A stretch of 64,000 nt of DNA from Candidatus Harrisonbacteria bacterium (GTDB lineage: Bacteria; Patescibacteriota; Minisyncoccia; UBA6257; 1-14-0-10-44-23): NCBI GenBank assembly GCA_023255625.1, contig JAHFLF010000003.1, positions 2,105-66,104 of the forward strand, given 5' to 3'. The position numbers were made by a program, and so were the translations under genes. Positions 23,799 through 62,624 of the stretch are shown here, piece after piece; position 1 is the first letter of the stretch; every line of letters begins with the position of its first letter. The notes under the pieces are model-generated. The model worked only from the letters and a program-made list of their open reading frames with translations. It was not told the DNA's origin and did not search any database.

Positions 23799-23839
<41 letters not shown>

Positions 23840-40881: not shown

Positions 40882-40904
40882 CAAGAAATCAGAATCGCAA
40901 AGAA

Positions 40905-40953
40905 AATAAAACACAAGCGCGCCGCCCTTCTGGGCGGCGCGCTTGTGTTTTTA
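40905..40953. terminator. Bidirectional Rho-independent terminator (rplS end)
   Basis: aaaacacaagcgcgccgccc ttct gggcggcgcgcttgtgtttttac. Confidence 0.65.
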
Positions 40954-40965
40954 CTTGCTTATATC

Positions 40966-47736: not shown

Positions 47737-47737
47737 G

Positions 47738-47811
47738 TGCGCGTGCCCTGATTCGAACAGGGTACCTCGTCGATGTCAACGACGCGCTCTAACCAAGTGA
47801 GCTACACGCGC
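47738..47811 (-). tRNA. tRNA-Val (anticodon GAC)
   Basis: GCGCGTG TA GCTC ACTTGGTTA GAGC G CGTCG TTGACAT CGACG AGGTA CCCTG TTCGAAT CAGGG CACGCGC A. Confidence 0.85.
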
Positions 47812-48494
47812 AATAAAAGCCTCTCGCAAAAATCTCTACTAATATTAATCAATTTACGCTGAATTGCAACATTAGCACATCTTAGAGAGCAAACGCCATG
47901 GTAGGCGGGGTATGTCTTTGATCCAATGGTTCGTTTGTCAAAATTCACTTGTTTAAAATTTTCAACCGGAATATCCAGCTCTTTTGACCAATGTCGTTTC
48001 ATTGCGTCGCCATCTTGGTCTGCTCTGAGATACAATTCACATCTGATTTTCTGAGTATCAATTTTATAATTTTTTCTAAGAATATATAAGAAAGTTTTGA
48101 GAATTAAGGGGTCAGAATTGCCAATTCCTGTTTCATCGTTACTCTTAAAGCCCTCGCCGAAATACAAAAATGCTAATGCCAAATCAAGAATGTCTGGATT
48201 ATCCAAATCTAAATTTTCTAAAACTGCATCTGATTGCTTTCTCGCCTCAGCAAGCCTACCAGCCTTCTGGGCATTATGCCATTCAACTGCCTTGAAACGC
48301 GCTTTAATCAGCCCCTCCCGCCAATCTCTTTTTAACTTATCTTTTTGTTTCCTACTTAACTCAACATCCTTAAGCCAAGGAGATACCGTGGACTGATTGA
48401 TTCCTAAGTGCTTAGCGATCCGTCCGATAGAAAGCCCTTTTATTCGCAAACGAATCGCTTCTTCTCTTTCTTTAACAAATTTAATACCACGCAT
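47802..48494 (-). CDS. HTH-domain protein with a single LAGLIDADG-like motif (putative free-standing homing-endonuclease-like gene)
   Basis: N-terminal HTH (LSIGRIAKHLGINQSTVSPWLK). LDLALAFLYFGEGFKSND resembles LAGLIDADG / GEGxF. Its stop overlaps the tRNA-Val 5' end by 10 nt. Confidence 0.45.
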   Translation of the reverse strand: MRGIKFVKEREEAIRLRIKGLSIGRIAKHLGINQSTVSPWLKDVELSRKQKDKLKRDWREGLIKARFKAVEWHNAQKAGRLAEARKQSDAVLENLDLDNPDILDLALAFLYFGEGFKSNDETGIGNSDPLILKTFLYILRKNYKIDTQKIRCELYLRADQDGDAMKRHWSKELDIPVENFKQVNFDKRTIGSKTYPAYHGVCSLRCANVAIQRKLINISRDFCERLLLRV

Positions 48495-48658
48495 GTATAC
48501 ATTATACCATCAGTAGTCCGAAAGTTATCAACAAAAAATGCCCGTTTGGGCAAATGCATAAATAAAGATTCTGTCGGGTCGGAGCACGCTTGCGCGCGCT
48601 CCGACCCGAACGATTGCTTCTTACTCCGAGCTACACACTCGGAGCGACGAAGCCGGAG

Positions 48659-50149
48659 TCAGACTCGAACATCTGCACCTGCTTCGTCACTTGTCTGAAC
48701 ACTGTGCCCGCTGCGCACCAGCGCCTCGGCCACCTCACCATCTAGGAATTCACGAACCTGCTCTTTCGACCGGCCCAGGAAACGAGCCGGGTCGAGCATG
48801 AAGCCCAAGTCATCGCGAACTGATGCGAAGTCCGGATCCGTCTCGATCCGGTCAAGAAGGTCGCTGTCAACCCCCTCTGCCCGCACGCGCTGCATCGCCT
48901 CCCGAGAGTGGCCGCGAATTAGCTCGTGCAATTGCTGCCGATCGCCACCGCTCTTCACGGCGAGCATGAGGATCTCCTCGGTGGCCATCGCCGGCAGCTC
49001 GCGCCGGAGGTCGCGCAGTAGCGCCGCCGGGTAGACGACGAGCCCCTTCGCGACATTCGCCTGCAGCAGCAATGCCGCGTCGATCGCGAGGAACGCCTCT
49101 GGCAGTGCGATTCGCTTGCCCGCGCTGTCATCGAGCGTCCGCTCGAACCACTGCTCCGCCGCCGTCTGTTCCGCAACGCTCGCAAGGGCCATTGCGACAC
49201 GAGCCAGCGAGGTCATCCGCTCGGAGCGCATCGGGTTGCGCTTGTACGCCATCGCCGAGGAGCCGATCTGCCCCGCAGTGACGGGTTCGTCGACATGCCC
49301 GAGCCCCATGAGCAGCCGGATGTCGTTCGCGAACTTGTGGACGGACTGGCCCACACCCGAGAGCAACTGCATCGCCTGTGCGTCGACCTTGCGCGGCGGG
49401 GTCTGCCCCGTAACCGAGAAAGTCCGGTCAAACCCCATTGACGCCGCGACACGCCGGTCGAGCTCGCGCACCTTGGCGTGGTCGCCGCCGAACAGAGTCA
49501 GGAACGATGCCTGGGTGCCGGTGGCCCCCTTGCATCCGAGGAACCGGAGATTCCGACGCCTCCATTCGCAGTCTTCGAGATCCAGGAGAAGATCCTGGAT
49601 CCAGAGGCAGACCCGCCGACCGAAGGTCGTCGGCTGTGCCGGCTGGAAGTGCGTGTACGACAGACACGGCGTCGAGATGTGCGCTTCGGCGAGATCCAGA
49701 AGCGCCACGATGACTGCGACGAGCCGCAGCTTGATCGTCTCGAGCGCCTCGCGCAGGATGATCAAGTCAGTGTTGTCGACCACATAGGCACTCGTGGCGC
49801 CCAGATGGATGATCGCGGCTGCCTTCGGACACTGGAGACCGTACGCGTGTACATGCGCCATCACATCGTGGCGCACCTCGCGTTCGCGGCGATCCGCGGC
49901 GTCGTAGTCGATGTCGTCGAGGTGCGACTCCAGCTCGACGATCTGCTCGTCCGTAATGGCGAGTCCGAGCTCCTGCTCGGCCCGCGCAAGGGCGAGCCAC
50001 AGCCGCCGCCAAGTGCGGAACTTCCGGTTGTCGCCGAACAGCTCGAGCATCACACGGCTGGCGTACCTAGTTGTGAGCGGGTTGACATATGTCTCGTGCG
50101 GATCGCCCGCATCGGTTGTCATAGCTTTCCTTCCTTCCTGGGAAATCAC
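48659..50149 (-). CDS. purB: adenylosuccinate lyase (high-GC gene)
   Basis: Lyase family 1 blocks: HLGATSAYV, HFQPAQPTTFG, GSSAMAYKRNPMRSE, LDDSA. Judged by eye at about 65% GC. Confidence 0.8.
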   Translation of the reverse strand: MISQEGRKAMTTDAGDPHETYVNPLTTRYASRVMLELFGDNRKFRTWRRLWLALARAEQELGLAITDEQIVELESHLDDIDYDAADRREREVRHDVMAHVHAYGLQCPKAAAIIHLGATSAYVVDNTDLIILREALETIKLRLVAVIVALLDLAEAHISTPCLSYTHFQPAQPTTFGRRVCLWIQDLLLDLEDCEWRRRNLRFLGCKGATGTQASFLTLFGGDHAKVRELDRRVAASMGFDRTFSVTGQTPPRKVDAQAMQLLSGVGQSVHKFANDIRLLMGLGHVDEPVTAGQIGSSAMAYKRNPMRSERMTSLARVAMALASVAEQTAAEQWFERTLDDSAGKRIALPEAFLAIDAALLLQANVAKGLVVYPAALLRDLRRELPAMATEEILMLAVKSGGDRQQLHELIRGHSREAMQRVRAEGVDSDLLDRIETDPDFASVRDDLGFMLDPARFLGRSKEQVREFLDGEVAEALVRSGHSVQTSDEAGADVRV

Positions 50150-50206
50150 GCAGACACCATGCCTGCTTTGTTCCCTGACTGTACCCTACACCAAAATAGA
50201 GCAATT

Positions 50207-50290
50207 TTGCAAAAACCTCCTGATTATCTTAGTTAGAAAATATGAATTTTGCACAAAGGGAGCACTAAATCTTATGTGCTCATCTTGTGC
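50207..50290. terminator. Long perfect hairpin (28-bp stem) between purB and folD; putative terminator or attenuator
   Basis: ttagttagaaaatatgaattttgcacaa ... ttgtgcaaaattcatattttctaactaa. Confidence 0.4.
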
Positions 50291-50314
50291 AAAATTCATA
50301 TTTTCTAACTAAAT

Positions 50315-51100
50315 TTAATTCGCTAGCTTATAAAAATTACTAAAAAGCATTGCAACGACAATCGGCCCTGTACCGCCCGGAGTTGGCGTCACGAATCCGG
50401 CAACACGGGAGACAGATTTAAAATCAACGTCACCGGAAAGTGTGTCGCTTTCGTCGCGACCGTAGCCGTAGTCAATAATCACGGCACCGTTTTTTATATC
50501 GTCCCCCTTGATGAGGCGCGGCACGCCTGTCCCGCTGACCACTAAGTCGGCATTGCGAACAACAGAAGATTCATATCCTCCTTTATTCATAATCGTAAGT
50601 TTTCTTGCTTTACCCATCAGCCAATCAGCAATCGGCCGTCCGATAAGCAAACCCGAGCCAACGATTACAACATCTTTTTCGACTACATTAAAATTGATCT
50701 CTTGCAAAATCCGCTGCAGGGCGCCAGCCGCCGGCGCCAAAATCTTGCTGGTCTCGCCGTTTAAAACATCAACATCTTTATCGATGCCTATTTCGTTCAG
50801 AACGGCAACGCGATCATATTTTTGCGGCAGCGGTAGCTGAATAATCACCGCGCCTACATCAGGATTTTCATAAATCGCTCGCACCTTTTTCTGCAATTCA
50901 ACCTGCGCAAGCGAATCCGCAAAACGATACAGATGAAATTTCACACCAAGCGACCGCGCCGCCATTTCTTTTTGCTTTAGAAAACTTAATGATGCCGAAT
51001 CATCACCAACCAAAATTGCCGCAAACTCCTTCTCTGGCACGAGTTGTTTGCGTAATTCCTTCAATATTTTTCCAGCTATATTGTTCCCGTCAATAATCAT
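50315..51100 (-). CDS. folD: bifunctional methylenetetrahydrofolate dehydrogenase/cyclohydrolase
   Basis: AAILVGDDSAS ... IIQLPLP ... VVIVGSGLLIGRP ... PGGTGPIVVAML. Confidence 0.85.
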   Translation of the reverse strand: MIIDGNNIAGKILKELRKQLVPEKEFAAILVGDDSASLSFLKQKEMAARSLGVKFHLYRFADSLAQVELQKKVRAIYENPDVGAVIIQLPLPQKYDRVAVLNEIGIDKDVDVLNGETSKILAPAAGALQRILQEINFNVVEKDVVIVGSGLLIGRPIADWLMGKARKLTIMNKGGYESSVVRNADLVVSGTGVPRLIKGDDIKNGAVIIDYGYGRDESDTLSGDVDFKSVSRVAGFVTPTPGGTGPIVVAMLFSNFYKLAN

Positions 51101-51129
51101 AAAATTAACTATACCCTTATTCGGGCGAA

Positions 51130-51390
51130 TTAGACCATAGTAAGAATCTGCTTAAAGGCGCTCGGCATTTCTTTCGCAAGTCGATAATATACATAAATGC
51201 TCCGCTGCTCTTTTTCTAATAAATCGGCCAAGAAAAGTGTTCGCAAGTGGCGCGAGGTTGCCTTAAATGATAAATGTATCTCGCCGGCAATATCCTGCAC
51301 CGTCGCCTCTCGTTCTTGCTTGAGATACTTTAATATTTGTAAGCGGCGCAAATTAGCAACTGCTTTTAATTTTTTCTCAACTTCTTTCAT
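51130..51390 (-). CDS. ArsR/SmtB-family transcriptional regulator
   Basis: LANLRRLQILKYLKQEREATVQDIAGEIHLSFKATSRHLRTL winged HTH. Confidence 0.7.
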   Translation of the reverse strand: MKEVEKKLKAVANLRRLQILKYLKQEREATVQDIAGEIHLSFKATSRHLRTLFLADLLEKEQRSIYVYYRLAKEMPSAFKQILTMV

Positions 51391-51460
51391 AATCTTTTAC
51401 TATCTTATTAAAGTATACCATGCCCTTATTCGGCCGAATGAGTCTATAGTAGATCCTTCA

Positions 51461-52735
51461 CTAATATGGGAGAGGGAAATTTTTGCAGAGCGCTACGACC
51501 TCTTTTCGGATTTTTGCTGGTGATTCTTTCTGGTCAATCAGCCGATGAATCCAGCCGGCAATAATTTTCATTTCTTTTTCTTTCATGCCGCGACTAGTAA
51601 CAAGCGGCGTGCCCATGCGAATACCGGTTGGTCGGAACGGCTTGTCGTCGCCGGGCACCGAATTACGGTTAGCAATAATGCCTGCTTTTTCAAGTAATTG
51701 CTCACCCTCGGAACCAGTCACATTTTTATTTTTTAGGTCAATGAGCAGCAAGTGGTTTTCTGTGCCGCCGGAGTAAATGGTAAATCCGTACTTCGCAAGC
51801 TCCTGCGCAAGCACCTTCGCATTTTTTACAATCTGTACCCCGTACCTCTTAAACTTCGGATCCTGCATTAGCTTGAACATAAGGGCAATCGCCGCCGTCT
51901 GGTTATTGTGTGGGCCGCCTTGAATCCCCGGGATAATGGCCTTATTGATGGCCATACCCAGCTGCTGCCCCTTCGCAAAGATAACGGCACCGCGAGGGCC
52001 CCGCATCGTCTTGTGCGTCGTCGCCATGACTGCGTCAGTGTGCGGAAACGGACTTGGATGCTGCCCCGTCGCAACTAAGCCGGCAATATGGCTGATATCG
52101 GCAACATGATACGCGCCAACTTTTTTAGCAATCTCGCCGATGCGTTTAAAATCAATCAGCCGTGAATAGGCCGTCGCACCAGAATAAATAACTTTCGGCT
52201 TGTGCTCCATCGCCAGTTTTTCAATCTGTGCATAATCAAGCAGACCGGTCTTCTCATCTAAGCCGTACTGCACCGATTTGTAAAAGATGCCTGAAAAATT
52301 CAACTTAAATCCATGAGTCAAGTGTCCGCCGTGTGCAAGCGACATACCAAGCACAGTGTCGCCCGGTTTCATGAGCGCGAAATAAATTGCCATGTTTGCC
52401 GCAGAACCAGAAGCCGCCTGCACATTCAAAAACCAAGTATCTTTATCCGCCGGATTTACCTCGTCCGATTTCATTGGCAGTTCGGTTGAGGGTTTGCCAT
52501 TTATACCGAATGCTTTAAATCCCTCGGTTTGCGCGAGCAACTCAATCTCATCGCAGAACTCATTGCCCGGATAGTAACGCCGGCGCGGATACCCTTCAGA
52601 ATATTTATTGACGAGCGGCGTGCCGAGCACTTTTAGAATTTCCGGATCAGCAATATTTTCTGACGGAATCAGCCCAATCGTCTCCTGCTGGCGCTTAGTT
52701 TCGGCATTTATTAACTTCCACAGTTTTGTATACAT
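51461..52735 (-). CDS. glyA: serine hydroxymethyltransferase
   Basis: PLP-lysine region ATTHKTMRGPRG and the overall SHMT pattern. Confidence 0.9.
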   Translation of the reverse strand: MYTKLWKLINAETKRQQETIGLIPSENIADPEILKVLGTPLVNKYSEGYPRRRYYPGNEFCDEIELLAQTEGFKAFGINGKPSTELPMKSDEVNPADKDTWFLNVQAASGSAANMAIYFALMKPGDTVLGMSLAHGGHLTHGFKLNFSGIFYKSVQYGLDEKTGLLDYAQIEKLAMEHKPKVIYSGATAYSRLIDFKRIGEIAKKVGAYHVADISHIAGLVATGQHPSPFPHTDAVMATTHKTMRGPRGAVIFAKGQQLGMAINKAIIPGIQGGPHNNQTAAIALMFKLMQDPKFKRYGVQIVKNAKVLAQELAKYGFTIYSGGTENHLLLIDLKNKNVTGSEGEQLLEKAGIIANRNSVPGDDKPFRPTGIRMGTPLVTSRGMKEKEMKIIAGWIHRLIDQKESPAKIRKEVVALCKNFPLPY

Positions 52736-52827
52736 GATGATTTTGTATAAATTGTACTCGATTTATTTACAAAATCTTCACCCCGCCAACGGCGCGGGTA
52801 ACGACTCTGTAAGATTTACTTTACCAT

Positions 52828-53592
52828 TTACTCCAATCTGATTCCACCTTTTCCTTTCTTCCACTTCGCTTTTTTAAGCAGCGGGTAAAATACATCATCC
52901 TGCGGGCGCACAAGCAGACCATCATTTTTATTTTTGGGCTTGTATGGCTTATCCGTAAACTGCACAAACGGAATGTCGGTAATAAGCGCCGCCGGCGTAG
53001 ACTCATTCCCCTCTCCCATCACAACAACAGCAGCGGCTGCAAATCCATCAGCGATATTGCGCAATGTTACCTTGAGCGGCTCGCCAAATAAATCGGGCGT
53101 ACCGCGATAATCAGTCAGTGGCACAAAACCATACGAGCCGATTGAGATGCCAACCGTGCCGCGGCGAAAAGGCAACAGATGCGAATCAGTAATTAATACA
53201 CCAACGCGCTTTACGCCATACTCTTTGCGCAGCCACTGCCAAATCTTTTTCGCCGATTCATTCGGGCTGATCGGCAGAAGAGTAAAATACTTCGCACTAT
53301 TACTCATATCAATCCCCGCAGAAGAAATGAATGCGCTGTGCTTGACCGTTGCCTGGTAATCGCCAAATCGGGTTTCCGTTTTTGGAAAATAATAATCTGC
53401 TTCAAGACGCATGAGCGCATCTTTTGTATTCCCCTTTTGTAACACACACCGCCCCTCCCAAATGCTCACCGCTTTTGAAGTAACCACCAAAACTGAATTT
53501 TCCGGCACATGCCTAATTGACCTGCGCAAAACTGCCAGCAGGTCATCCTGCGGTGGCTGTAGAACCCGAGTTTTAATTGGTTTAACGAACAT
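52828..53592 (-). CDS. CofE-like gamma-glutamyl ligase family protein
   Basis: VLVVTSKAVSIWEGR ... is typical of F420-0:gamma-glutamyl ligase-like proteins. Function in this organism unknown. Confidence 0.5.
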   Translation of the reverse strand: MFVKPIKTRVLQPPQDDLLAVLRRSIRHVPENSVLVVTSKAVSIWEGRCVLQKGNTKDALMRLEADYYFPKTETRFGDYQATVKHSAFISSAGIDMSNSAKYFTLLPISPNESAKKIWQWLRKEYGVKRVGVLITDSHLLPFRRGTVGISIGSYGFVPLTDYRGTPDLFGEPLKVTLRNIADGFAAAAVVVMGEGNESTPAALITDIPFVQFTDKPYKPKNKNDGLLVRPQDDVFYPLLKKAKWKKGKGGIRLE

Positions 53593-54109
53593 ATTTCAGT
53601 AGTAATGTCCCCCGTTTATTTAATTTCTTAACACTCGCAAGCTTAAATTTTTCCTCAAACGACCCTTCGGCAATGAGCGACTTTCCGTTACCAAAGATGA
53701 ACGGCTCAATCGTCAGTAGTATTTCGTCAATCAGCTTTGCTTTGAAAAACAAAGCGTTGATTTCACCGCCGCCAACCAAAAACAATTGCGTATACCCCTT
53801 CTTTGCATACTCTTCAACCAACTTCTGCGCAGTCGCGCTCGTAAACTCTAGTTGGCCTGGCCGTACATGTTTGCCATACCGCTTCGGCGTGCGCGTCATC
53901 ACCACACGAAGCTGCCCCGGACGAAACTCCATAAAGTCACGCGCAGCATCATAGGTTTTACTGCCCATCACGACCAGCTTCTGCTTTTTGAGTGTTCCGT
54001 AAAACAACTCTTGGTCTTCTCCAGATGCCCACTCTTGGATATCAACACTCGTCGTGCCCTTCGTAATCCGTCCGTTGATTGTAGAAACCATCATGAGCAC
54101 GACTCGCAT
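53582..54109 (-). CDS. dihydrofolate reductase-like (RibD C-terminal domain family) protein
   Basis: MVSTINGRITKG ... LVVMGSKTYDA ... LFLVGGGEINALF ... pattern. Confidence 0.55.
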   Translation of the reverse strand: MRVVLMMVSTINGRITKGTTSVDIQEWASGEDQELFYGTLKKQKLVVMGSKTYDAARDFMEFRPGQLRVVMTRTPKRYGKHVRPGQLEFTSATAQKLVEEYAKKGYTQLFLVGGGEINALFFKAKLIDEILLTIEPFIFGNGKSLIAEGSFEEKFKLASVKKLNKRGTLLLKYVR

Positions 54110-54112
54110 ATT

Positions 54113-54766
54113 CTATGCTTTCTGAATTTGCTTTTTTTCACCGCGCAGCCAGCGAATTCCAAGATACGAAAGTGGCGTAAAGGCAAAACCCATCGCAACC
54201 TTGTAGACCCACCAGGAAAGAGTAGTCGTAATGAGCACTGGCCAGGAATACACGCCGATAAATGCAATGCTCATGAACAAGACGCTGTCAAGAAACTGCG
54301 ACCAGATGTTAGACATAAGCGACCGGAGCCAAAAGTGCCGCGAACCAAACCGTGCCTTGAAAAAGAAAAACGAAAGCACATCCTGATACTCGGCAACAAT
54401 ATAGGCAACCAGCGAGGCAATCGTAATCCGCGCCGTAATACCAAACACCGTCCCGTACGCACCCTGTACCCAGCTAGCGTCATGCGACCAGGGCATGGCC
54501 AGCGAAATCATCGCGTAGATAAGAAAGACCAGATTGCTCAAGAATCCGGCAATCACAAATGACTTGGCCGTCTCCTTGCCAAACACCTCGCCGACAACAT
54601 CGGTCATGATAAAGACAATCGGAAACGAAAATACTGCCACCGACAGATGCGTGCCGAAAAGAAATGGCATTAATTTAAGTCCAAGCGTATTGGCCGCAAA
54701 CAGAGAGGTCAGGTACAGAGTCAGCGCGACGAGCAGCCGCCGCGAGGTAAAGATAGTAAGATCCAT
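54113..54766 (-). CDS. yhhQ: queuosine-precursor transporter YhhQ (VUT/DUF165) family membrane protein
   Basis: 217 aa, six TM segments, TDVVGEVFGKETAKS motif. Confidence 0.6.
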   Translation of the reverse strand: MDLTIFTSRRLLVALTLYLTSLFAANTLGLKLMPFLFGTHLSVAVFSFPIVFIMTDVVGEVFGKETAKSFVIAGFLSNLVFLIYAMISLAMPWSHDASWVQGAYGTVFGITARITIASLVAYIVAEYQDVLSFFFFKARFGSRHFWLRSLMSNIWSQFLDSVLFMSIAFIGVYSWPVLITTTLSWWVYKVAMGFAFTPLSYLGIRWLRGEKKQIQKA

Positions 54767-54934
54767 GCGAGAAATAATTTAATGGTAAAACAAAACCGCC
54801 TAACAGTGGCGGTTTCTAAACAATAACATAAGAAGCCGCCAAAAACTATGAGGCGACTCGCGAGGTAAATGAAGACCAGGTTGTGATGTGAGCGTTGTGA
54901 AGCATAGGATTAGTATAGCATAAGTTTGTCTTTG

Positions 54935-55006
54935 TGCGCGTGGGAGGGATCGAACCTCCGGCCTTTTCATTATCAGTGAAATGCTCTACCACTGAGCTAC
55001 ACGCGC
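54935..55006 (-). tRNA. tRNA-Ile (anticodon GAT)
   Basis: GCGCGTG TA GCTC AGTGGTA GAGC A TTTCA CTGATAA TGAAA AGGCC GGAGG TTCGATC CCTCC CACGCGC A. Confidence 0.85.
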
Positions 55007-55260
55007 CCTTCTTCGCTTAGCTTGGTAACTAAGCTTCGCAAGGGCAAGAGATGGTATATCTGTATCTCTCGTCCTTCCGAAGCTCGAGTACTCACGAGCG
55101 TAGGAGGAAGCTACACGCGCCCTTCTTCGCTTAGCTTGGTAACTAAGCTTCGCAAGGGCAAGAGATGGTATATCTGTATCTCTCGTCCTTCCGAAGCTCG
55201 AGTACTCACGAGCGTAGGAGGAAGCTACACGCGCCCTTCTTCGTTAAAGCTTCGCAGGGC
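55007..55260. repeat. Tandem direct repeat (107-bp unit, about 2.4 copies) abutting the tRNA-Ile 5' end; each unit ends with a mimic of the tRNA 5' end (AGCTACACGCGC)
   Basis: Unit cccttcttcgcttagcttggtaactaagcttcgcaagggcaagagatggtatatctgtatctctcgtccttccgaagctcgagtactcacgagcgtaggaggaagctacacgcg repeated at 55007-55113 and 55114-55220, then truncated to 55260. Confidence 0.8.
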
Positions 55261-55315
55261 AAGCATTAACTTAGCTATTATTTTTACCTGAATACGGCTG
55301 GTTAGTCAATGAAGG

Positions 55316-55675
55316 TTACGGCCTAGTTGTGGTCGGCTTAGCCGACGGGATTGTTGATGTCGCCAAGGTCGTTGTTGAGCCATTCGTTGTAGTCGCCACG
55401 GTTGTCGTTGCAACACTTGGCCCGGGGATTGAATATGCGCTTAAAAGAGTCGTGCTGCCCGGGTAAAGACGCTTGACAATTTCATCATATTTCGCAAAGT
55501 TAAAGGCCTGATTTTTATCAGCATCTAACTGTTCCTCGCCAAAAACAGCATCGGCTTTTTGCGTTATAGCACTCACCAGATAAATAAAGTAAGTAATCAA
55601 ACCGAGAGCCAGCAAACTAGCCGCCACCATATAAATAACCTCCCGCCGATGATTGCCAGCATTTTTAATTCTCAT
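55316..55675 (-). CDS. hypothetical membrane-anchored protein with a Thr-rich C-terminal tail
   Basis: One TM (VIYMVAASLLALGLITYFIYLV); C-terminal TTTVATTTNGSTTTLATST low complexity. Confidence 0.3.
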   Translation of the reverse strand: MRIKNAGNHRREVIYMVAASLLALGLITYFIYLVSAITQKADAVFGEEQLDADKNQAFNFAKYDEIVKRLYPGSTTLLSAYSIPGPSVATTTVATTTNGSTTTLATSTIPSAKPTTTRP

Positions 55676-56221
55676 TTATTTAGTATAAATCAACCCGTTT
55701 GTTGTTAAATTATACTTGTCTTCCAGCTGATAATTAACTGTAATGTTGTCAAAATGAATAAAGTACGGATGTGCCTCCAAAAATTTGATGAATCCAACCA
55801 GAGCGTCATATGTGCCGCTAGTGCTTAAGTCAAAATGAATGCTGCCGGGACTTTGCCCTGTCGCCTTCTTCTGTTCTCCATATTCAAATCCGGCCGTAAC
55901 GCCAAACTCTTTCGGGTAAACATTATTCATCTTGCGTCGAAAACTTAATAAATCATTTTCTCCCGGAAGCACCGTTTCAAGCCAGGTAAGCAGTGGCTCT
56001 GCCCGCTTCAAGTCGCTGTTGCCGCCGGCCAAAAGCTCAACCATCCGGTTACGCAGAGCAATCTCGTTCTTTTGAGCTCGAATATCCGCCGCTTGTTTGG
56101 TAGTATGAATATTCAGAATAACAACTGCGGCCGCCAAAACAACTATCGTAGCGACTGCGATTACCACTTGCACCAATAAGCGTCTGTAAAAATTAGTTAA
56201 AGTCATCGTATAGTATTCCAA
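55676..56221 (-). CDS. hypothetical membrane-anchored protein (PilO/PilN-like topology; low confidence)
   Basis: N-terminal TM, coiled-coil segment, then a C-terminal alpha/beta domain. Confidence 0.3.
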   Translation of the reverse strand: MEYYTMTLTNFYRRLLVQVVIAVATIVVLAAAVVILNIHTTKQAADIRAQKNEIALRNRMVELLAGGNSDLKRAEPLLTWLETVLPGENDLLSFRRKMNNVYPKEFGVTAGFEYGEQKKATGQSPGSIHFDLSTSGTYDALVGFIKFLEAHPYFIHFDNITVNYQLEDKYNLTTNGLIYTK

Positions 56222-56288
56222 ACACGCTAATCATCATGAATACGCTAAAAAAATAATCGGGAATAATTATAGTATATCATAATAAGAT

Positions 56289-57323
56289 ATGGCTGCGATC
56301 TCTGAACATTCCTTCTACAATGCGCTCGCTCTCCGCTATCGTGCGAATTACGGAGCTCTTAAAAAATTGCGGCAGCGATTTTCCAGCTGGGGAAAAGCGT
56401 ACGCTGCCACTCGCGATCGAGAGACGCCGGATCCGGAAGAAGCATTTGCGGAACTTGAAAAATTTGGCATCCAGTGTATTCTGCGCGAAGACAAAATTTT
56501 TCCGGCACAACTTTTAGAAATTTCCTGGCCGCCATTCGCGCTGTATGTTCGTGGCCAGTTGCCAAAAAAGTGGACTCCGGCCTTGGCGATGGTCGGTACG
56601 CGTAAAGCAACGCCGGTTGGCCTCCGATTTGCCGAACAGCTGGCCGGCGATCTAGCCAGACGCGGTGTCATAATTATTAGCGGGCTGGCTCTGGGGGTTG
56701 ACGCGGCCAGCCAACATGGTGCAATTGCCGGCGGCGGCATCACCGTGGCCGTCCTTGCCTCCGGATTAGATCGGATCACGCCGCAAACTAATAGCCGGCT
56801 GGGAGAACAAATTTTGCAAAAAGGCGGCGCGATTATCTCTGAATATCCAATCGGCACCGAATCTGTACCGCGACTTTTCCTGGAAAGAAACCGAATTGTC
56901 AGCGGTCTATCACAAGCCGCTCTGATTATTGAGGCGCCTAAGCGCTCCGGCACGCTCTCAACCGCCCGTTTTGCAATTGAACAAAATCGGGATGTCCTGG
57001 TTGTGCCCGGCGGAATAAATAACCCAAATTATGAGGGTTCAAATGAGCTACTCAAGCAAGGTGCACAACTCGTTACCGGCATTAGCGATGTACTCCAAAC
57101 GCTGGGTCTTGATGAGCAGCCGGAAAAAGCAACTATGCGCTTTCCTTTTCTTGATGATCCGCAGCAAAAAATCATGGCATATTTGACAGAGCTCGGCGAG
57201 CCCGTGCATACTGACGCCTTGTCCGATGCGCTAAAAATCTCCGGACAACAAATTAGCGAATCGCTGGCTATGCTAACTATTATGAGCATCGTCAAAGAAG
57301 AAGGCGGCCGATATTATATATGA
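56289..57323 (+). CDS. dprA: DNA processing protein A (SMF family)
   Basis: MVGTRKATPVGLRFAEQLAGDLARRGVIIISGLALGVDAASQHGAI...VPGGINNPNYEGSNELLKQGAQLV. Confidence 0.85.
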   Translation: MAAISEHSFYNALALRYRANYGALKKLRQRFSSWGKAYAATRDRETPDPEEAFAELEKFGIQCILREDKIFPAQLLEISWPPFALYVRGQLPKKWTPALAMVGTRKATPVGLRFAEQLAGDLARRGVIIISGLALGVDAASQHGAIAGGGITVAVLASGLDRITPQTNSRLGEQILQKGGAIISEYPIGTESVPRLFLERNRIVSGLSQAALIIEAPKRSGTLSTARFAIEQNRDVLVVPGGINNPNYEGSNELLKQGAQLVTGISDVLQTLGLDEQPEKATMRFPFLDDPQQKIMAYLTELGEPVHTDALSDALKISGQQISESLAMLTIMSIVKEEGGRYYI

Positions 57324-57324
57324 A

Positions 57325-57435
57325 TGCAAATTTCTATTTTTCAATTTCTAATTCCTAAACAATTTCCAATTTATAAATTTCAAAATTAAAATATTGTTTG
57401 AAAATTGATAATTAAAAATTAGAAATTTTACACCC
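57325..57435. repeat. AT-rich ~100-bp repeat cassette, copy B (about 85% identical to 7519-7622), immediately upstream of topA
   Basis: ttttcaatttctaattcctaaacaatttccaatttataaatttcaaaattaaaatattgtttgaaaattgataattaaaaattagaaatt. Confidence 0.6.
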
Positions 57436-59652
57436 ATGAAACTCCTCATCGTCGAATCCCCCACCAAAGCGAAAACAATCGGCAAATATATCGGCAGCGG
57501 CTACACCGTCGTCGCTTCGGTCGGCCATGTGCGAGATCTGCCGAAGTCAAATAAAAAAGCGATTGATATCGCCGCTGGGTTTGTGCCGCACTATGAAGTG
57601 AGCGCCGGCAAAGAGAAAGTGATAGCAGAAATCAAATCTCTGGCGCACAAAGCCGACGAGACTATTTTAGCAACCGACCCGGATCGAGAGGGCGAGGCCA
57701 TCGCCTGGCACATCGCGCAGGCCGTAGGATTAAAAAACCCAGACCGCGTTGTTTTTCATGAAATCACCAAAGAGGCGGTGCTGGAGGCACTTATGCATCC
57801 GCGCAAAATTGACATGCAACTTAAAGAAGCGCAGGAGGCGCGGCGGGTTTTAGACCGCTTAGTCGGCTATGACCTCTCCGGACTGATTTGGAAAAAAGTT
57901 CGTTACGGACTTTCGGCTGGCCGCGTCCAGTCCCCGGCGCTGCGAATTCTCATGGAACGCGAACGCGAAATCCGCGCTTTCAAACCAGACACCTTCTTCT
58001 CTATTTCTGTCTTGCTTCGCAAGATCCCGCATAGCGGGACAGAATCGCAAGAAGACACCTTTACCGCTGTCTGCGAAAAAGAACCGGCAACTGCAGCCGA
58101 GGCCGAGCTGATTTGCACCGCCGCCAAAAATGGAAAGTGGGCGGTTGTCTCGGTTACAGAAACGCAGGTGAATCGCTCTCCTCTTCCGCCGTTTACAACC
58201 AGCACGCTCCAGCAGGTCGCCTCTAACCGACTTGGTTTTTCACCAAAAAGAACGATGATGGCGGCGCAAAAGCTCTATGAGCATGGGCACATAACTTATA
58301 TGCGCACCGACAGCGTGAACATCTCTGCTGTTGCGCTGGAGCAGATAAAGTCGGCGGTTGTTAAAAAATTTGGCGCGGCGGCGCACCAACCGCGCGTTTA
58401 CAAAACCACCTCAAAAAATGCGCAGGAGGCCCACGAGGCCATCCGTCCATCGCATTTTGAAAAAGAAACCGCTGGGCTAAGCGATGACCAGCATGAACTT
58501 TATCGGCTGATCTGGCAGCGGACAGTCTCTTCGCAGATGCAGGACGCAGTTATGATGCGCACGCGGGTTATTTCTAATATTCAAACGAAAACAATTCCCG
58601 ACTTTGTGGTGAACGGCTCACGCGTCATAAGCGCCGGCTGGCTGGCCGCCGATCCGGAGGCCAAGGGCGAGGACAAGTCAGTGCCAAAAGTTGCCGCGCA
58701 CGATCCGCTCTCGCTCATAAAAATCACGCCGGAAGAAAAGCAGACCCAGCCGCCAAACCGATATTCAGAGGCAGGGCTCATTAAAGAACTGGAAAAGCGC
58801 GGCATCGGTCGCCCGTCAACCTATGCCTCAATTATCAACACGATTATTGAGCGCGGCTACGTTGATAAAGATGGACGGACGCTGAAGCCGACAGACACCG
58901 GCGATGTGGTCTCCACATTTTTGGAGCAAAATTTTGAAAACTATATCAGCGATACCTTTACGGCCGAGATGGAGGACGAGCTGGATGATATCGCCACCGG
59001 TAAGCGAAAATATTTGCCGACTCTCAAGGACTTTTACGGGCCGTTTTCAAAAGATGTAAAGTCAAAAGAAAAAACCGCAAAGTTGACCACGCTTGGCGAT
59101 GCCGATCCAAAACTCAAGTGCCCAAAATGCGGTGCCGCGATGATTATTAAGCTAGGCCGCGGCGGTAAGTTTTTGAGCTGCGAGACATTTCCGGAATGCA
59201 AAGGTATGCGGAACATTGACGGCAGCGAAATTAAAGAAGCAGCGGCAATCGGCACTGATCCAGTGAGCGGCTTGCCGGTGTTTATCATGACCGGCCAATA
59301 TGGACCGTATGTTCAATTAGGTATTAAAGACGACAAAAAAAATAATAAGAACAAAAAACCGCGCCGATCATCAGTACCAAAAGAAAAAGACCCGGCAACC
59401 GTCACGCTTGAAGAGGCCCTGAAATATCTTTCCCTGCCGCGCCAGCTTGGCGCGCATCCGGACACAAAGGAAATAATCTCCGCCAATATCGGCATGTTCG
59501 GTCCGTATATTGTTCATCAAAAAGATTTTCGTTCGCTGAAACCGGCTGATGGAGACGATGTCTATACTATTAATCTTGACCGCGCCTTAGAAATTTTCAA
59601 AGAGCCAAAAAAGTTTGGCCGCCGCGGCCGCCAGAAAAAGGAAACTCCATAG
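57436..59652 (+). CDS. topA: DNA topoisomerase I
   Basis: Toprim N-terminus MKLLIVESPTKAKTIGKY, active-site region GHITYMRTDS, a C-terminal zinc ribbon (CPKCGAAM...CETFPECKG), and a basic tail. Confidence 0.9.
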   Translation: MKLLIVESPTKAKTIGKYIGSGYTVVASVGHVRDLPKSNKKAIDIAAGFVPHYEVSAGKEKVIAEIKSLAHKADETILATDPDREGEAIAWHIAQAVGLKNPDRVVFHEITKEAVLEALMHPRKIDMQLKEAQEARRVLDRLVGYDLSGLIWKKVRYGLSAGRVQSPALRILMEREREIRAFKPDTFFSISVLLRKIPHSGTESQEDTFTAVCEKEPATAAEAELICTAAKNGKWAVVSVTETQVNRSPLPPFTTSTLQQVASNRLGFSPKRTMMAAQKLYEHGHITYMRTDSVNISAVALEQIKSAVVKKFGAAAHQPRVYKTTSKNAQEAHEAIRPSHFEKETAGLSDDQHELYRLIWQRTVSSQMQDAVMMRTRVISNIQTKTIPDFVVNGSRVISAGWLAADPEAKGEDKSVPKVAAHDPLSLIKITPEEKQTQPPNRYSEAGLIKELEKRGIGRPSTYASIINTIIERGYVDKDGRTLKPTDTGDVVSTFLEQNFENYISDTFTAEMEDELDDIATGKRKYLPTLKDFYGPFSKDVKSKEKTAKLTTLGDADPKLKCPKCGAAMIIKLGRGGKFLSCETFPECKGMRNIDGSEIKEAAAIGTDPVSGLPVFIMTGQYGPYVQLGIKDDKKNNKNKKPRRSSVPKEKDPATVTLEEALKYLSLPRQLGAHPDTKEIISANIGMFGPYIVHQKDFRSLKPADGDDVYTINLDRALEIFKEPKKFGRRGRQKKETP

Positions 59653-59869
59653 TATGTCATTGCGAGGTACTCCGTGGCAATCCAGAATCCCTAAAATGAA
59701 AAATCCCCCAGAGGTTATCTGAGGGTTTTCTCTCTTTCGAGAGTGAACGGCTGCTGGTGGTAATGACCACCGACATAAGACAGACTCACAAAACTGCAAA
59801 AAGAAACGGACAACAAGTTCTACGAACGACACGAGAAAACAGTCACGAAGCTACTTCAATGGAGCTAAA

Positions 59870-60181
59870 TCAGTACTGACCTCCGTTCTGAAAGATATCA
59901 ATTTTCGGGAGGTCGATCTCCGAAAGGACTAACGGCTCAGCCCCAAGCATCGGGGTCGGATAATACCACCTCCGAAACAGGCGCTGCGCCTGCGCGCTGC
60001 CGCGATCTCGCGGCTCAAAGACGGCCACATCGAATGAATCGCCGCACAAGCCGGTTGGAATTAACAACCGCTCGTCATTTTTCAAGGGCTCCAGAACCCG
60101 GTCTAGGTTCTTTTCCCAGACCGTTGGCTTCCTACCCAACTTCTTGAAAATGTTGGGTCCTACTGCGTCGATCAGCGTCAT
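59870..60181 (-). CDS. hypothetical protein (GC-rich segment)
   Basis: 103-aa ORF. No family recognised. Confidence 0.25.
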   Translation of the reverse strand: MTLIDAVGPNIFKKLGRKPTVWEKNLDRVLEPLKNDERLLIPTGLCGDSFDVAVFEPRDRGSAQAQRLFRRWYYPTPMLGAEPLVLSEIDLPKIDIFQNGGQY

Positions 60182-60655
60182 GCCCGCCTCCGTGTCTGCG
60201 GCATTACATAGCCGCGGAGTTTAGGCATTTCCGGGTTGGAAACGACCAAGCTACGCGGCTACGAAAATTAACAAAGTACTCCATATAGAGTACACCCTTT
60301 TGAGTATTTTGTCAATATCACTAAAAACCTTGATTTTATGGGCTTAAACAGCCATGTGCCTATTTAAAAATGCGTCGCGGGGAACCAAAGGTTCCCCGCT
60401 CGCGCTAGCGCAGACGCCGGCTTCTTCGCCCGAATCGACGAAGGTGGATTCCCCGCTGTCGTCCGTACAGAGCGTACAGAGCCAGCACGGCACCTTGCCG
60501 TCCGGCGTGAGCGGAAGTCTCGCGTCCGCTTGCTGCTCCGGAGTCAGGTGAACATCGTGTCCAACCTGACATTTCAAACTCGCCGGGTGAAGCATAGTCC
60601 CCCTCCTAAGTTGGGCCCTGACTACTCCGTGCAGTCTTAGTAAATCAAAAATAAA

Positions 60656-61723
60656 CTATAAAGTAAATTCCTGTTCGCCCTCCGTAGCTGTCTCCGTTGC
60701 CGAGCCATTGGCAACTAGGCCGTCTGGGGCAGGCTCGCCTACAACGGCCACAGGATCAGAATGACGCGGGGAGGAATCCGGAATTGCTTTAAATTCTTCA
60801 TTCTTAATTCTTAATTCTTCATTCGCCGCATCCTGCACTATCTGATTTTCTTCCTGACTAACTGTCGTCTGACTAACCGACGACTGACCCATCGTCATCT
60901 TCTGCAAAAGCGCATACAACTCCTCCGGCGTTGAAAAGGCAATTGTAATTTTTCCGATCGCTCCATTTCTTTCAACCTGGACCGTTGAGCCGAGATGCTC
61001 TTCAAGCTGCGTTTTAATACTCATCGCCTCCGCATCCACCGTGCCCACTTGTGCTACTTGCCCACTTGTAACTGGCGCCTGTGGCGCCTTTATATACGCA
61101 ATCTTATTGCGAATCTCGCGCACCGAAAGTCCGCGCAAAATAATATCATCAAAAAGTTGCTGCTGTTGCTTCACATCATCCAGCGATAAAATCAGACGCG
61201 CCTGACTTTCGTTAATTTTTCCGGCCGAAACCGCGTCTTGAATTCCCGTCGGCAAATTTAAGAGCCGCATTGTATTTGCAACAACCTCACGGCTCTTGCC
61301 AATGCGCTGCGCGATCTCCCGCTGTGTCAGCCGAAATTCTTCTTGAAGACGGGCGTACGCGCGCGCCGCTTCGATTGGATTTAAGTCTGCCCGTTGCACA
61401 TTTTCAACAATGGCCAGCTCCAGCTTCTCTTTATCCAGCCCGACATTTTTAATGACCGCCGGTACGCGTTCCAGACCAACCAATTGCGCGGCTCGAAAAC
61501 GCCGTTCACCGGCAACAAGCTGGTAACGAACTATTGTACCGGTTTCTGTAACCTCTTCAATCTTGGTAACGACAAGCGGCTGTAAAATACCGTAATCGCG
61601 AATTGAATTAGCCAGCTCGCCTAGTTGCTCATCATTAAAAACCCGCCTTGGCTGATACGGGTTTGGCTCAATTTTATTAACCTCAATTAAAAAAACATGT
61701 TCTTGAATCTGGGGCTGTTGCAT
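60656..61723 (-). CDS. parB: ParB/Spo0J-family partition protein with a long low-complexity C-terminal extension
   Basis: ParB box GERRFRAAQLVGLERVPAVI, HTH, and a C-terminal acidic/Thr-rich tail. No parA is adjacent. Confidence 0.75.
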   Translation of the reverse strand: MQQPQIQEHVFLIEVNKIEPNPYQPRRVFNDEQLGELANSIRDYGILQPLVVTKIEEVTETGTIVRYQLVAGERRFRAAQLVGLERVPAVIKNVGLDKEKLELAIVENVQRADLNPIEAARAYARLQEEFRLTQREIAQRIGKSREVVANTMRLLNLPTGIQDAVSAGKINESQARLILSLDDVKQQQQLFDDIILRGLSVREIRNKIAYIKAPQAPVTSGQVAQVGTVDAEAMSIKTQLEEHLGSTVQVERNGAIGKITIAFSTPEELYALLQKMTMGQSSVSQTTVSQEENQIVQDAANEELRIKNEEFKAIPDSSPRHSDPVAVVGEPAPDGLVANGSATETATEGEQEFTL

Positions 61724-61724
61724 A

Positions 61725-61805
61725 GCTTTTTAGCTGGTCAGCTGTTTAGCTTCTTAGCTTTAAAATGACTCGCCGGAAAAGCTGACTAGCTGATAAGCTA
61801 AGGAG
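61725..61805. repeat. TAGCT/CAGCT-unit imperfect hairpin array upstream of parB (related in style to the TTAGTTAG arrays)
   Basis: agctttttagctggtcagctgtttagcttcttagcttt ... aaaagctgactagctgataagctaaggagctg. Confidence 0.45.
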
Positions 61806-61856
61806 CTGTCCACGCCTCTTTATTTTACAACATTATTCTGTTATATTCAAAGCCAA

Positions 61857-61940
61857 GCCCGGGTGGCGGAACTGGCAGACGCGATGGATTCAAGACCCAT
61901 TGGCCGAAAGGCCTTGAGAGTTCAACTCTCTCCCCGGGCA
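61857..61940 (+). tRNA. tRNA-Leu (anticodon CAA)
   Basis: GCCCGGG TG GCG GAACTGGCAGA CGC G ATGGA TTCAAGA CCCAT TGGCCGAAAGGCCT GAGAG TTCAACT CTCTC CCCGGGC A. One A.C mismatch closes the anticodon stem. Confidence 0.75.
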
Positions 61941-61943
61941 CAC

Positions 61944-62624
61944 ATGGCCAAACCAAAATTGCCTGATATAGATTTTCCATGGACGCCTAATCTAGCTTAT
62001 GCAGTTGGTCTCTTAACAACTGATGGCAATCTTTCTCCGGATGGTAGACATATCAACTTTACCTCGAAAGATGAAGAGCTAGTTCTCTCCGTCAAGTCCT
62101 GCCTGAATCTAAAAAATCGAATCGGTAAAAAAGGAAATGGCTCTTATCTTAACGAGAAAAAATACTTCGTCTTACAATTTGGGAATATACAATTGTATCG
62201 CTGGTTGGTGAGGATTGGATTGACTCCGCGAAAAAGTAGGACGATCGGTGCGCTGGAAATTCCCAACGAGTTTTTCAGAGATTTTCTCCGAGGTCACCTA
62301 GACGGTGACGGCGGGATAACTACATGTACTGACTACTATAACGCATCAATAAAACCAGAATATGTATACATCCGCCTTTGCGCTCGTTTCATTTCGGCGA
62401 GTGAAAAACATATGCGATGGATGAAAGAAAAAATAGAAGAGACTCTTCAAATTTTTGGAAGTCTGCATAAAGCAAAGGCTCGTAGTGAGGTACACGCCAA
62501 TATGTGGATACTCAAATTCGGCAAAAAAGAAAGCATCAAACTCCTTAGTAAGCTTTACTATGACAAAAATCTTCCCTCACTCTCGCGCAAACGGCTGATT
62601 GCCGAAAAATTCATTTCGTTATAA
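61944..62624 (+). CDS. double-motif LAGLIDADG homing endonuclease (free-standing)
   Basis: Motif 1 LAYAVGLLTTDGNL and motif 2 FLRGHLDGDGGI. The ATG is 4 nt after the tRNA-Leu(CAA) 3' end; the tracked start at 61863 would lie inside the tRNA. Confidence 0.7.
   Translation: MAKPKLPDIDFPWTPNLAYAVGLLTTDGNLSPDGRHINFTSKDEELVLSVKSCLNLKNRIGKKGNGSYLNEKKYFVLQFGNIQLYRWLVRIGLTPRKSRTIGALEIPNEFFRDFLRGHLDGDGGITTCTDYYNASIKPEYVYIRLCARFISASEKHMRWMKEKIEETLQIFGSLHKAKARSEVHANMWILKFGKKESIKLLSKLYYDKNLPSLSRKRLIAEKFISL

Follow-up and report, generated by a model that had tools for sequence, protein, structure and literature searches.

Two genes for putative homing endonucleases are located directly at tRNA genes in a stretch of 64,000 nt from Candidatus Harrisonbacteria bacterium (GCA_023255625.1, contig JAHFLF010000003.1, positions 2,105-66,104 of the forward strand), which as a whole is referred to as the window. 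The gene linked to tRNA-Leu(CAA) is designated P1 and the gene linked to tRNA-Val(GAC) is designated P2; tRNA genes were called with ARAGORN and Rfam. We consider it fairly probable that P1 and P2 are free-standing homing-endonuclease cassettes which are specific for tRNA genes and which are embedded in tRNA transcription units. An initial inspection of the bare DNA (the sequence-only reading) had already been reminded of tRNA-targeting mobile elements. This view has gained support from the conserved adjacency of the genes to tRNAs and from the occurrence of occupied as well as empty sites. Endonuclease activity and homing are inferred.

The linkage was surveyed in relatives of both genes. A P1 profile was compared to one genome per GTDB species, which resulted in 437 confirmed relatives, and a P2 profile was compared to metagenomes, with 505 confirmed relatives; in each case the best 80 loci were inspected. 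In about 70 of the 80 best loci, the predicted start of the P1 ortholog is preceded at a distance of 0-40 nt by a tRNA-Leu(CAA) of the same strand. The spacer between tRNA and gene is 0-13 nt across the loci (typically 2-8 nt), is A/T-rich and lacks a Shine-Dalgarno sequence. The nearest homolog of P1 from the window, with 78% sequence identity, is likewise placed after the 3′ end of a tRNA-Leu. Of the 80 best metagenome loci, 70 have a P2 ortholog that extends into tRNA-Val(GAC), and six others are truncated by the end of the contig. Relative to the 5′ end of tRNA-Val(GAC), the ortholog ends at -36 to +33 nt with a mode of -10, at which the stop codon TAG represents tRNA nt 8-10. Where tRNA-Val does not have that TAG, the P2 frame stays open for about 22 or 36 nt of the tRNA before a stop is reached.

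Neighbours beyond the pair vary among lineages while the gene-tRNA pair itself is constant. Since the same pairs recur in so many independent loci, the adjacency is far beyond chance. A coincidence might be expected in a very compact genome, and genes of the window are indeed tightly packed (the ATG of a hydrolase gene, for example, follows directly past tRNA-Val), but with identical pairs found among differing neighbours the probability of a chance neighbourhood is negligible and random placement, which the sequence-only reading had kept in mind, is refuted.

The association extends to further tRNAs. Paralogs were divided into subfamilies by profile scores, and P1-like paralogs were found immediately upstream of tRNA-Leu(GAG), tRNA-Leu(CAG) and tRNA-Leu(TAA), while P2-like paralogs occur immediately upstream of tRNA-Ile(TAT), tRNA-Gly(GCC) and tRNA-Trp(CCA), frequently with the stop codon inside the tRNA. 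As intergenic genes beside a conserved gene, here and in about 140 related loci, both have the position that characterizes the class of free-standing homing endonucleases.

According to profile searches and structure prediction, P1 is a genuine LAGLIDADG protein of two domains in which the catalytic pair is intact. The Pfam family LAGLIDADG_3 is matched with 24.6 bits (cut-off 22.5 bits), this match covering only aa 17-55, and a profile search of PDB retrieves 2dch (I-Tsp061I) with an E-value of 1.7e-6, the identity between the two proteins being only about 16%. In the AlphaFold2 (AF2) model, which has a predicted local distance difference test score (pLDDT) of 88.9, an alpha-beta-beta-alpha-beta-beta-alpha unit occurs twice. 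All 50 matches listed by Foldseek against PDB are LAGLIDADG proteins, and the best of these is again 2dch (7e-10), an archaeal rRNA-intron endonuclease. PHROG 4645 ("endonuclease") is matched with 1.4e-29. The acidic residues which close the two motifs (D27 and D120/D122) are invariant in 29 P1 homologs. The double-motif gene next to tRNA-Leu(CAA) that had been proposed from the letters is thus borne out by the Pfam and PDB profiles, the modelled fold and the invariant aspartates. P1 would be expected to introduce site-specific double-strand breaks. Its homologs form more than 1380 clusters. No helix-turn-helix (HTH) domain was matched in P1 by Pfam. Phage proteins related to P1 (endonuclease of a Brevibacillus phage, or intein-like) are distant, with 27% identity, and provide no information on tRNA linkage. 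In another genome, tRNA-Leu(CAA) is preceded by an open reading frame (ORF) of about 1200 aa (locus L029, 285-3899), and a LAGLIDADG-like stretch within it has a weak match to the P1 profile; the ORF may be an intein-containing gene.

The P1 ORF as listed (61863-62624) opens at a GTG within tRNA-Leu(CAA). However, every homolog begins with M-P/A-K-x-K-L-P at ATG 61944, which is therefore taken as the true start. Adjacency to the tRNA is thereby confirmed while the distance, initially given as 4 nt, is corrected to 2-3 nt. P1 lacks a Shine-Dalgarno sequence in the window. As there is no room for a promoter of its own, P1 must be transcribed by read-through from tRNA-Leu(CAA). The sole promoter candidate able to serve both genes is a pair of promoter-like hexamers which stop 9 nt short of the tRNA; they were recognized by eye, their match to the consensus is weak, and they are not among the sites listed by a promoter scan of the window. 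The terminator scan revealed no terminator-like site between these hexamers and the end of P1. The content of guanine plus cytosine (GC) is 40.5% in P1 and 38.7% in P2, compared to 47.8% in the window.

P2 overlaps with its tRNA, and the sequence-only reading was right in placing its end 10 nt inside tRNA-Val(GAC): the last 10 nt of the P2 frame are the first 10 nt of the tRNA, and the stop codon TAG (47804-47802) corresponds to tRNA nt 8-10. At the other end, only 6 nt (GTATAC) separate an extended -10 element from the ATG. The same promoter-to-ATG geometry is found in 54 of 60 distinct loci of the P2 family, and only one of the 60 has a Shine-Dalgarno sequence. Because the ATG lies 6 nt past a conserved extended -10 element without a Shine-Dalgarno sequence, the P2 mRNA should be leaderless. 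As the P2 ORF abuts the tRNA, the P2 promoter, judged by its position, must also drive tRNA-Val(GAC). A convincing terminator was not found by the terminator scan between tRNA-Val and the downstream hydrolase gene, which is probably co-transcribed as third member of the unit. A homolog of this hydrolase (cluster c72) is encoded directly 3′ of tRNA-Leu(GAG) in L076, and it is thus another gene prone to sit on a tRNA 3′ end.

Table 1 Features of the two endonuclease-tRNA units. Positions are those of the window; motifs and promoter elements are given under remarks.
Feature	Position	Strand	Remarks
alpha/beta-hydrolase-like gene	46873-47736	-	ATG is the first base past the tRNA-Val 3′ end
tRNA-Val(GAC)	47737-47811	-	ARAGORN; Rfam 62.9 bits
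P2, gene for protein with N-terminal HTH	47802-48494	-	230 aa
LAGLIDADG-like motif of P2	48135-48182	-	LALAFLYFGEGFKSND
Promoter of P2 and tRNA-Val (predicted)	48501-48531	-	from sequence; -35 TTGATA (48531-48526), 19-nt spacer, extended -10 TGgTATAAT (48509-48501)
Terminator-like hairpin just upstream of P2 promoter	48539-48552		terminator scan
Promoter-like hexamers 5′ of tRNA-Leu(CAA)	61819-61847	+	by eye, weak consensus match, tentative; TTTATT, 17-nt spacer, TATATT
tRNA-Leu(CAA)	61857-61941 (ARAGORN), 61857-61940 (Rfam)	+	class II, CCA not encoded; Rfam tRNA 46.6 bits
P1, gene for predicted free-standing double-motif LAGLIDADG endonuclease (monomeric type)	61944-62624	+	226 aa
LAGLIDADG motif 1 of P1	61992-62033	+	LAYAVGLLTTDGNL; D27 invariant in 29 homologs
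LAGLIDADG motif 2 of P1	62283-62318	+	FLRGHLDGDGGI; D120, G121, D122, G123 invariant in 29 homologs

The P2 protein consists of an HTH (aa 7-43), a 45-residue long helix (aa 48-93) and a C-terminal alpha/beta domain (aa 100-229). The N-terminal HTH that had been noticed at first sight is confirmed by Pfam (HTH_23, 6e-7, and also HTH_28) and is transposase-like. The AF2 model has a pLDDT of 90, and its C-terminal domain is confident. P2 homologs form 635 clusters, and the superfamily of the C-terminal domain comprises 2462 clusters at 50% identity. The LAGLIDADG assignment made from the letters stands less firmly for P2 and rests on several weak signals which, taken together, make a LAGLIDADG-derived fold of the C-terminal domain likely. 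In the model, the first element of this domain is a helix that terminates in G-E-G, and a beta hairpin and a further helix come next. When compared by hhalign to the N-terminal LAGLIDADG domain of P1, it is aligned with P = 0.002-0.006, while the mutual alignment of the two domains of P1 is poorer (P = 0.067). Only such a domain-wise comparison is informative, as alignments of whole P1 and whole P2 gave a probability of 0.2%. Sub-threshold matches to LAGLIDADG_3 were obtained for 4 of 70 divergent members of the P2 superfamily and to Hom_end for one paralog. In BFVD, the C-terminal domain matches "Homing endonuclease [Bodo saltans virus]" (probability 0.97, root-mean-square deviation 3.0 A over 113 columns, E 0.14), and further matches over this domain are annotated as "rRNA intron-encoded endonuclease" and "LAGLIDADG-like domain". 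In a comparison to a representative library, the matches were saturated by the family itself so that a bridge to annotated families was not visible.

Among the 70 divergent superfamily members, which share about 30% identity, G115 is invariant and L110, Y111, E114, K117, R157, D159, Q160, D186 and R188 are conserved in at least 90%. The C-terminal domain is thus conserved as well as charged, and this pattern suggests an enzyme and not a mere binding module. One divergent relative, P0475, was set aside, as it is represented only by contigs of 1.1 kb from a GC-rich organism, has a convergent tRNA-like end, and thus provides too little to be used.

If the genes are mobile, related genomes should differ in their occupancy, and occupied as well as empty sites were indeed found when relatives were inspected beside the same tRNAs. 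Presence/absence polymorphism is evident at tRNA-Leu(GAG), tRNA-Gly(GCC) and tRNA-Ile(TAT). The spacer between rplS and tRNA-Leu(GAG) has only 0-22 nt when empty (11 loci) and 680-840 nt when occupied by a P1-like gene (4 loci). Equivalent values are 3-23 nt versus 743-1067 nt for the spacer between tRNA-Phe and tRNA-Gly(GCC), and 3-156 nt versus 758-795 nt for the one between ftsH and tRNA-Ile(TAT). In the window, the spacer between rplS and tRNA-Leu(GAG) (40767-40965) is 199 nt long, while most relatives have only 0-22 nt. A strong terminator hairpin rich in GC and a promoter-like sequence, TAGGTATACT, were recognized in it, but no remnant of an endonuclease. Nor did the remainder of the window reveal a further copy or remnant of either family.

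For tRNA-Leu(CAA), an unbiased sample could be obtained which is anchored by ParB, the product of the gene divergent from this tRNA in the window. It consists of 8 contigs with a ParB 57-80% identical and with the topA-parB synteny common to all. All eight of these relatives keep tRNA-Leu(CAA) beside parB and none of them has a P1 ortholog; in several, terminator hairpins are found directly past the tRNA. Other elements are found beside this tRNA. L166 has an unrelated LAGLIDADG_3 gene in the place of P1, downstream of the tRNA, and L164 has a GIY-YIG gene 4 nt upstream of it. Large serine recombinase genes reside beside the tRNA in L161 and L167, with long inverted repeats in L167. Thus, mobile DNA of several classes has landed at the flank of tRNA-Leu(CAA), and in the lineage of the window the occurrence of P1 is sporadic. 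The tRNA-Leu(CAA) of the window shares 70 of 85 positions with the P1-linked tRNA of a distant genome and 58-64 of 85 with the tRNAs of the ParB relatives, a difference which is suggestive only.

Gene decay was also encountered. Frameshifted or stop-containing copies are present in L104, L120 and L137, and the spacer between rplS and tRNA-Leu(GAG) in L115 and L116 contains a 39-aa C-terminal remnant; these copies represent stages of decay. In addition, the tRNA genes themselves have left remnants. A search with an nhmmer profile revealed 3′ partial copies of tRNA-Leu(CAA) directly after the P1 stop codon or overlapping with it (L004, L007, L062, L065, L002, L064), while 5′ fragments of this tRNA were never found after P1 by the profile. 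A simple mismatch pattern for tRNA 3′-end repeats after P1 had detected only 3 cases among 69 loci and was thus outperformed by the profile. Remnants of tRNA genes can be recognized in only about 6-8 of 75 loci. The remnants begin at tRNA nt 7-13 approximately. The one in L004 represents about nt 12-85 of tRNA-Leu(CAA) (E 1e-12) and differs from the intact tRNA by compensatory stem changes. In L062, the P1 frame runs into the tRNA fragment. In 4 of 5 scored cases the remnant is closer to tRNA-Leu(CAA) alleles of other genomes than to the intact neighbour in its own genome. Such foreign-type fragments next to the gene are the sole, indirect hint at a cut in the cassette-free allele and at co-conversion of its flanks. 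For P2, an intact tRNA-Val is followed by P2 and then by a degenerate pseudo-tRNA-Val in L102, L103 and L105. As a separate observation, matches to the tRNA-Val profile are split in L087 (3916-4080) and in L131-L133 (e.g. L131, 4808-5161), with the 5′ part (nt 1-30) and the 3′ part (nt 21/39-73) being about 100-270 nt apart; the tRNA genes in question may contain an intron or may be disrupted.

Partial tRNA 3′ copies are also a hallmark of integrase insertion at tRNA genes. P1 and P2 might therefore be cargo or edge genes of larger integrative elements which have tRNA attachment sites and which are moved by recombinases, a view for which the serine recombinase genes and repeats that flank tRNA-Leu(CAA) in L161 and L167 might be quoted, as well as the fact that genes downstream of P1 differ between genomes. 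It is nevertheless only the gene of about 0.7 kb that is constant beside the tRNA in about 70 genomes, and no recombinase occurs in the cluster lists of neighbouring genes. Furthermore, the difference between an occupied and an empty site is just one gene length, and P2-type genes are fused to the 5′ side of the tRNA, which is not where integrases act. We thus judge it improbable that the two genes are passengers of larger elements.

A further idea, raised by the sequence-only reading, is that the genes have been left behind after intron loss. They would then be relics of intron-encoded endonucleases, formerly residing in group I introns of tRNA genes or copied from rRNA introns. Group I introns do occur in tRNA and rRNA genes of Patescibacteria, and those in rRNA genes frequently encode LAGLIDADG proteins (PMC13011429, PMC11270868). 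The best structural match of P1, which is an rRNA-intron endonuclease, and the P1 frame that enters a tRNA fragment in L062 would also fit. However, apart from the tRNAs Rfam detected nothing at E<=1 around P1 or P2, which includes any group I intron. tRNA-Leu(CAA) and tRNA-Val(GAC) are complete, continuous and uninterrupted, and the ORF fills the entire gap between its neighbours. In addition, the tRNA-intron endonucleases reported from Patescibacteria are of the HNH type and occur in tRNA-Asn, and most such introns are devoid of them (PMC13011429). An origin by intron loss is thus very improbable. As P1 is a separate ORF without intron signal, it belongs to the free-standing class, and the initial description of both genes as intron-less and free-standing is upheld. 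The same inspection had listed three 23S group I introns in the window that do not encode an endonuclease. The 23S rRNA gene (20042-24659) carries insertions of about 1.7 kb, only two of which match Rfam Intron_gpI (54.9 and 48.9 bits), and it is correct that neither these insertions nor any other part of the window, beyond P1 and P2, contain a LAGLIDADG-like frame.

We propose the following scenario for P1 and P2 as homing cassettes. The encoded protein would cut the tRNA gene of a cassette-free genome, probably in its conserved 5′/D-arm part and the flank. Repair from incoming, cassette-bearing DNA would then insert a copy of the gene, in some cases along with a replacement tRNA, and the resident tRNA would stay behind as a decaying fragment. 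The tRNA genes would thus serve both as targets and as homology arms. That remnants start at about nt 7-13 and that the P2 stop codon is at nt 8-10 may hint at an involvement of the acceptor/D-arm part of the tRNA gene. An ORF that is positioned between an essential tRNA and its promoter would make the cassette hard to delete. The cut by ribonuclease P (RNase P) at the 5′ end of tRNA-Val should remove the P2 stop codon, and therefore tRNA processing and P2 translation would be mutually exclusive for any one transcript. In the case of P1, 3′ processing of tRNA-Leu would leave a near-leaderless mRNA. Both processing effects would keep endonuclease levels low and tRNA output high.

The main rival to this scenario is domestication. 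P1 and P2 may be old, vertically inherited genes of the candidate phyla radiation (CPR) which are derived from homing endonucleases but have adopted a host role at tRNA loci, for example as regulators of tRNA transcription units or as RNA- or DNA-binding maturation factors, so that absences would reflect losses. Both families are very large, well conserved and of uniform length, and across classes they keep the same position with respect to the tRNA. P2 carries a DNA-binding HTH and sits on a promoter that must drive the tRNA too. The clusters of P1 are partly congruent with synteny classes, and WhiA is among the Foldseek fold matches of P1. On the other hand, domesticated LAGLIDADG proteins such as WhiA and maturases typically lose the catalytic aspartate, whereas both catalytic aspartates of P1 are invariant. 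It has been mentioned that P1 is kept in none of the eight closest relatives, all of which have kept the tRNA, that paralogs at other tRNAs are polymorphic for insertion or absence, and that pseudogenes and remnants occur. Foreign-type pseudo-tRNA fragments which flank the gene, and a GC content below that of neighbouring genes, also argue for mobility. WhiA is a bacterial transcription factor that has two degenerate LAGLIDADG domains without catalytic acids and a C-terminal HTH. Its combination of an HTH and a LAGLIDADG-type scaffold resembles what we propose for P2, but P2 has its HTH at the N-terminus, has a single domain with a conserved glutamate, and is multi-copy and patchy. A classification as WhiA-like domesticated regulators was thus rejected: the acids are conserved, the HTH is N-terminal (P2) or absent (P1), and the families are patchy and multi-copy. 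Overall, we consider domestication unlikely.

Several points nevertheless weigh against homing cassettes. P1 and P2 show 50-60% identity across CPR classes, which is high for a selfish gene. A tree of P1 computed by the unweighted pair group method with arithmetic mean (UPGMA) gave a mixed picture when compared to synteny and taxon labels, with clusters that partly follow synteny classes, and the mode of descent is not settled by it. Because conservation is high and P1 clusters partly track synteny, much of the inheritance appears to be vertical, and a host function is possible. Neither a cleavage site nor a target sequence nor an immunity polymorphism has been identified, and the 5′ sequences of tRNA-Leu(GAG) show no obvious systematic difference between filled and empty sites. 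A pseudo-tRNA remnant was not detected in the window by nhmmer. For P2, the C-terminal domain was not matched in Pfam, NCBIfam or the PDB sequence profiles, where only the HTH was found, and PHROGs also gave no match; LAGLIDADG proteins are absent among the 50 matches listed by Foldseek against PDB. The Pfam and PDB searches which supported the assignment for P1 thus did not do so for P2. All comparative contigs are metagenome assemblies, and for occupancy of tRNA-Val(GAC) by P2 the sample is biased and provides no unbiased frequency of P2-free sites.

Free-standing homing endonuclease genes among tRNA genes have a precedent in phage T4. The GIY-YIG gene segB is positioned between tRNA genes, targets the tRNA region and drives its preferential inheritance (PMC2988022). 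Its expression is thought to be limited by transcript processing, and T4 endonuclease genes which contain host promoters have led to the same argument of protection against deletion (PMC2988022). In a further report of 2026, SegB is linked to segmental amplification (PMC13096335). P1 and P2 share with SegB the free-standing gene at tRNA genes. SegB differs by its GIY-YIG fold and its phage genome, by having its own spacer and ribosome-binding site, and by not sharing a start or stop with a tRNA; also, SegB is a single gene while P1 and P2 are members of families in which each tRNA has a subfamily of its own.

The closest parallel to the pseudo-tRNA remnants is found in fungal mitochondria, where mORFs coding for LAGLIDADG or GIY-YIG proteins are inserted at the end of a host gene (Allomyces atp6; Glomus atp6, atp9, cox2 and nad3) (PMC3630166). 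The mORF brings along a foreign replacement for the gene end, and the native end stays downstream and is not expressed (PMC3630166). The order of tRNA-Leu(CAA), P1 and pseudo-tRNA in L004, L007, L065 and L002 resembles this arrangement, including the foreign allele type. A duplicated host-gene end beyond the ORF is present in L004, L007, L062, L065, L002, L064 and L102/L103/L105 and is absent from the window. The hosts of mORFs, however, are mitochondrial protein-coding genes, while bacterial tRNA genes are affected here.

With LAGLIDADG endonucleases of rRNA introns, i.e. I-Tsp061I (2dch) and those in CPR rRNA insertions, P1 shares the monomeric double-motif fold, and the CPR phylum is rich in LAGLIDADG genes in rRNA insertions (PMC11270868). 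P1 differs in that it is outside an intron, is distant from 2dch in sequence and has a tRNA and not an rRNA context. The group I introns found in tRNA genes of Patescibacteria are another case of mobile-element biology at tRNA genes in the same phylum (PMC13011429). They interrupt the anticodon loop, are spliced as RNA and rarely carry endonuclease genes, which are of the HNH type (PMC13011429), whereas in our case the tRNAs are intact and the endonuclease genes are outside.

While free-standing homing endonuclease genes, mORFs, LAGLIDADG genes in CPR rRNA insertions and tRNA introns of Patescibacteria are thus already known, our full-text searches revealed no report of free-standing, tRNA-flanking families of the LAGLIDADG type in these bacteria. 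What is new are cassettes at chromosomal tRNA genes of bacteria in which every tRNA is matched by its own subfamily, the sharing of start and stop signals with the tRNA, and a second, uncharacterised superfamily that contains an HTH. More tentatively, the data may be read as a phylum-wide system of homing cassettes for tRNA genes in Patescibacteria, with two superfamilies (one of them a new architecture that joins an HTH to a single LAGLIDADG-like domain and whose catalytic domain lacks a Pfam model), one subfamily per tRNA, hijacked tRNA signals and an mORF-like spread that involves foreign tRNAs. In such a system, the promoter would precede the ORF and the stop codon would be inside the tRNA, so that processing and translation would compete and deletion would silence the tRNA.

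If this is true, the tiny CPR genomes tolerate and widely share selfish endonucleases which are directed against tRNA genes in addition to rRNA genes, and the cassettes would be a marker of DNA exchange between unculturable lineages. The data also point to a possible horizontal replacement of tRNA alleles in these genomes. Meganuclease engineering would profit from a natural set of compact LAGLIDADG enzymes whose targets (tRNA genes) can be predicted. The design of expression is unusual, with a predicted leaderless mRNA that is fused to a tRNA and a stop codon that RNase P should remove. For genome annotation, the cassettes would explain ORFs which are called through tRNA genes (253-aa forms) and fragments of pseudo-tRNAs.

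A few additional observations concern other parts of the window. Upstream, the P2 promoter is adjoined by an adenylosuccinate-lyase-like gene (48659-50149, minus strand) with 64% GC compared to 48% in the window. It is the only such case among the compared loci and was probably acquired horizontally.

Directly 5′ of tRNA-Ile(GAT), and reaching 12 nt into it, is a perfect tandem repeat (54995-55243) which consists of 2.2 copies of a 114-nt unit with 100% identity. Each unit closes with nt 1-12 of tRNA-Ile(GAT), GCGCGTGTAGCT. tRNA-Ile(GAT) and tRNA-Val(GAC) agree completely in their first 14 nt. We speculate that the repeat could be the footprint of a break and its repair at the part of the tRNA that matches the junction between P2 and tRNA-Val.

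Within the 23S rRNA gene, one of the group I intron matches (20549-21075) contains two tRNA genes (20706-20889, minus strand), which occupy the usual place of endonuclease ORFs. The first is a tRNA-Phe(GAA) with encoded CCA (Rfam 67 bits), and the second is a tRNA-like gene of 92 nt with a long extra arm, assigned as Lys(CTT) by ARAGORN (41.9 bits). The same rRNA gene has a long, near-perfect hairpin (23571-23750) with sub-threshold matches to plant microRNA precursors on both strands and probably represents either an expansion segment or a third insertion that is not of the group I type.

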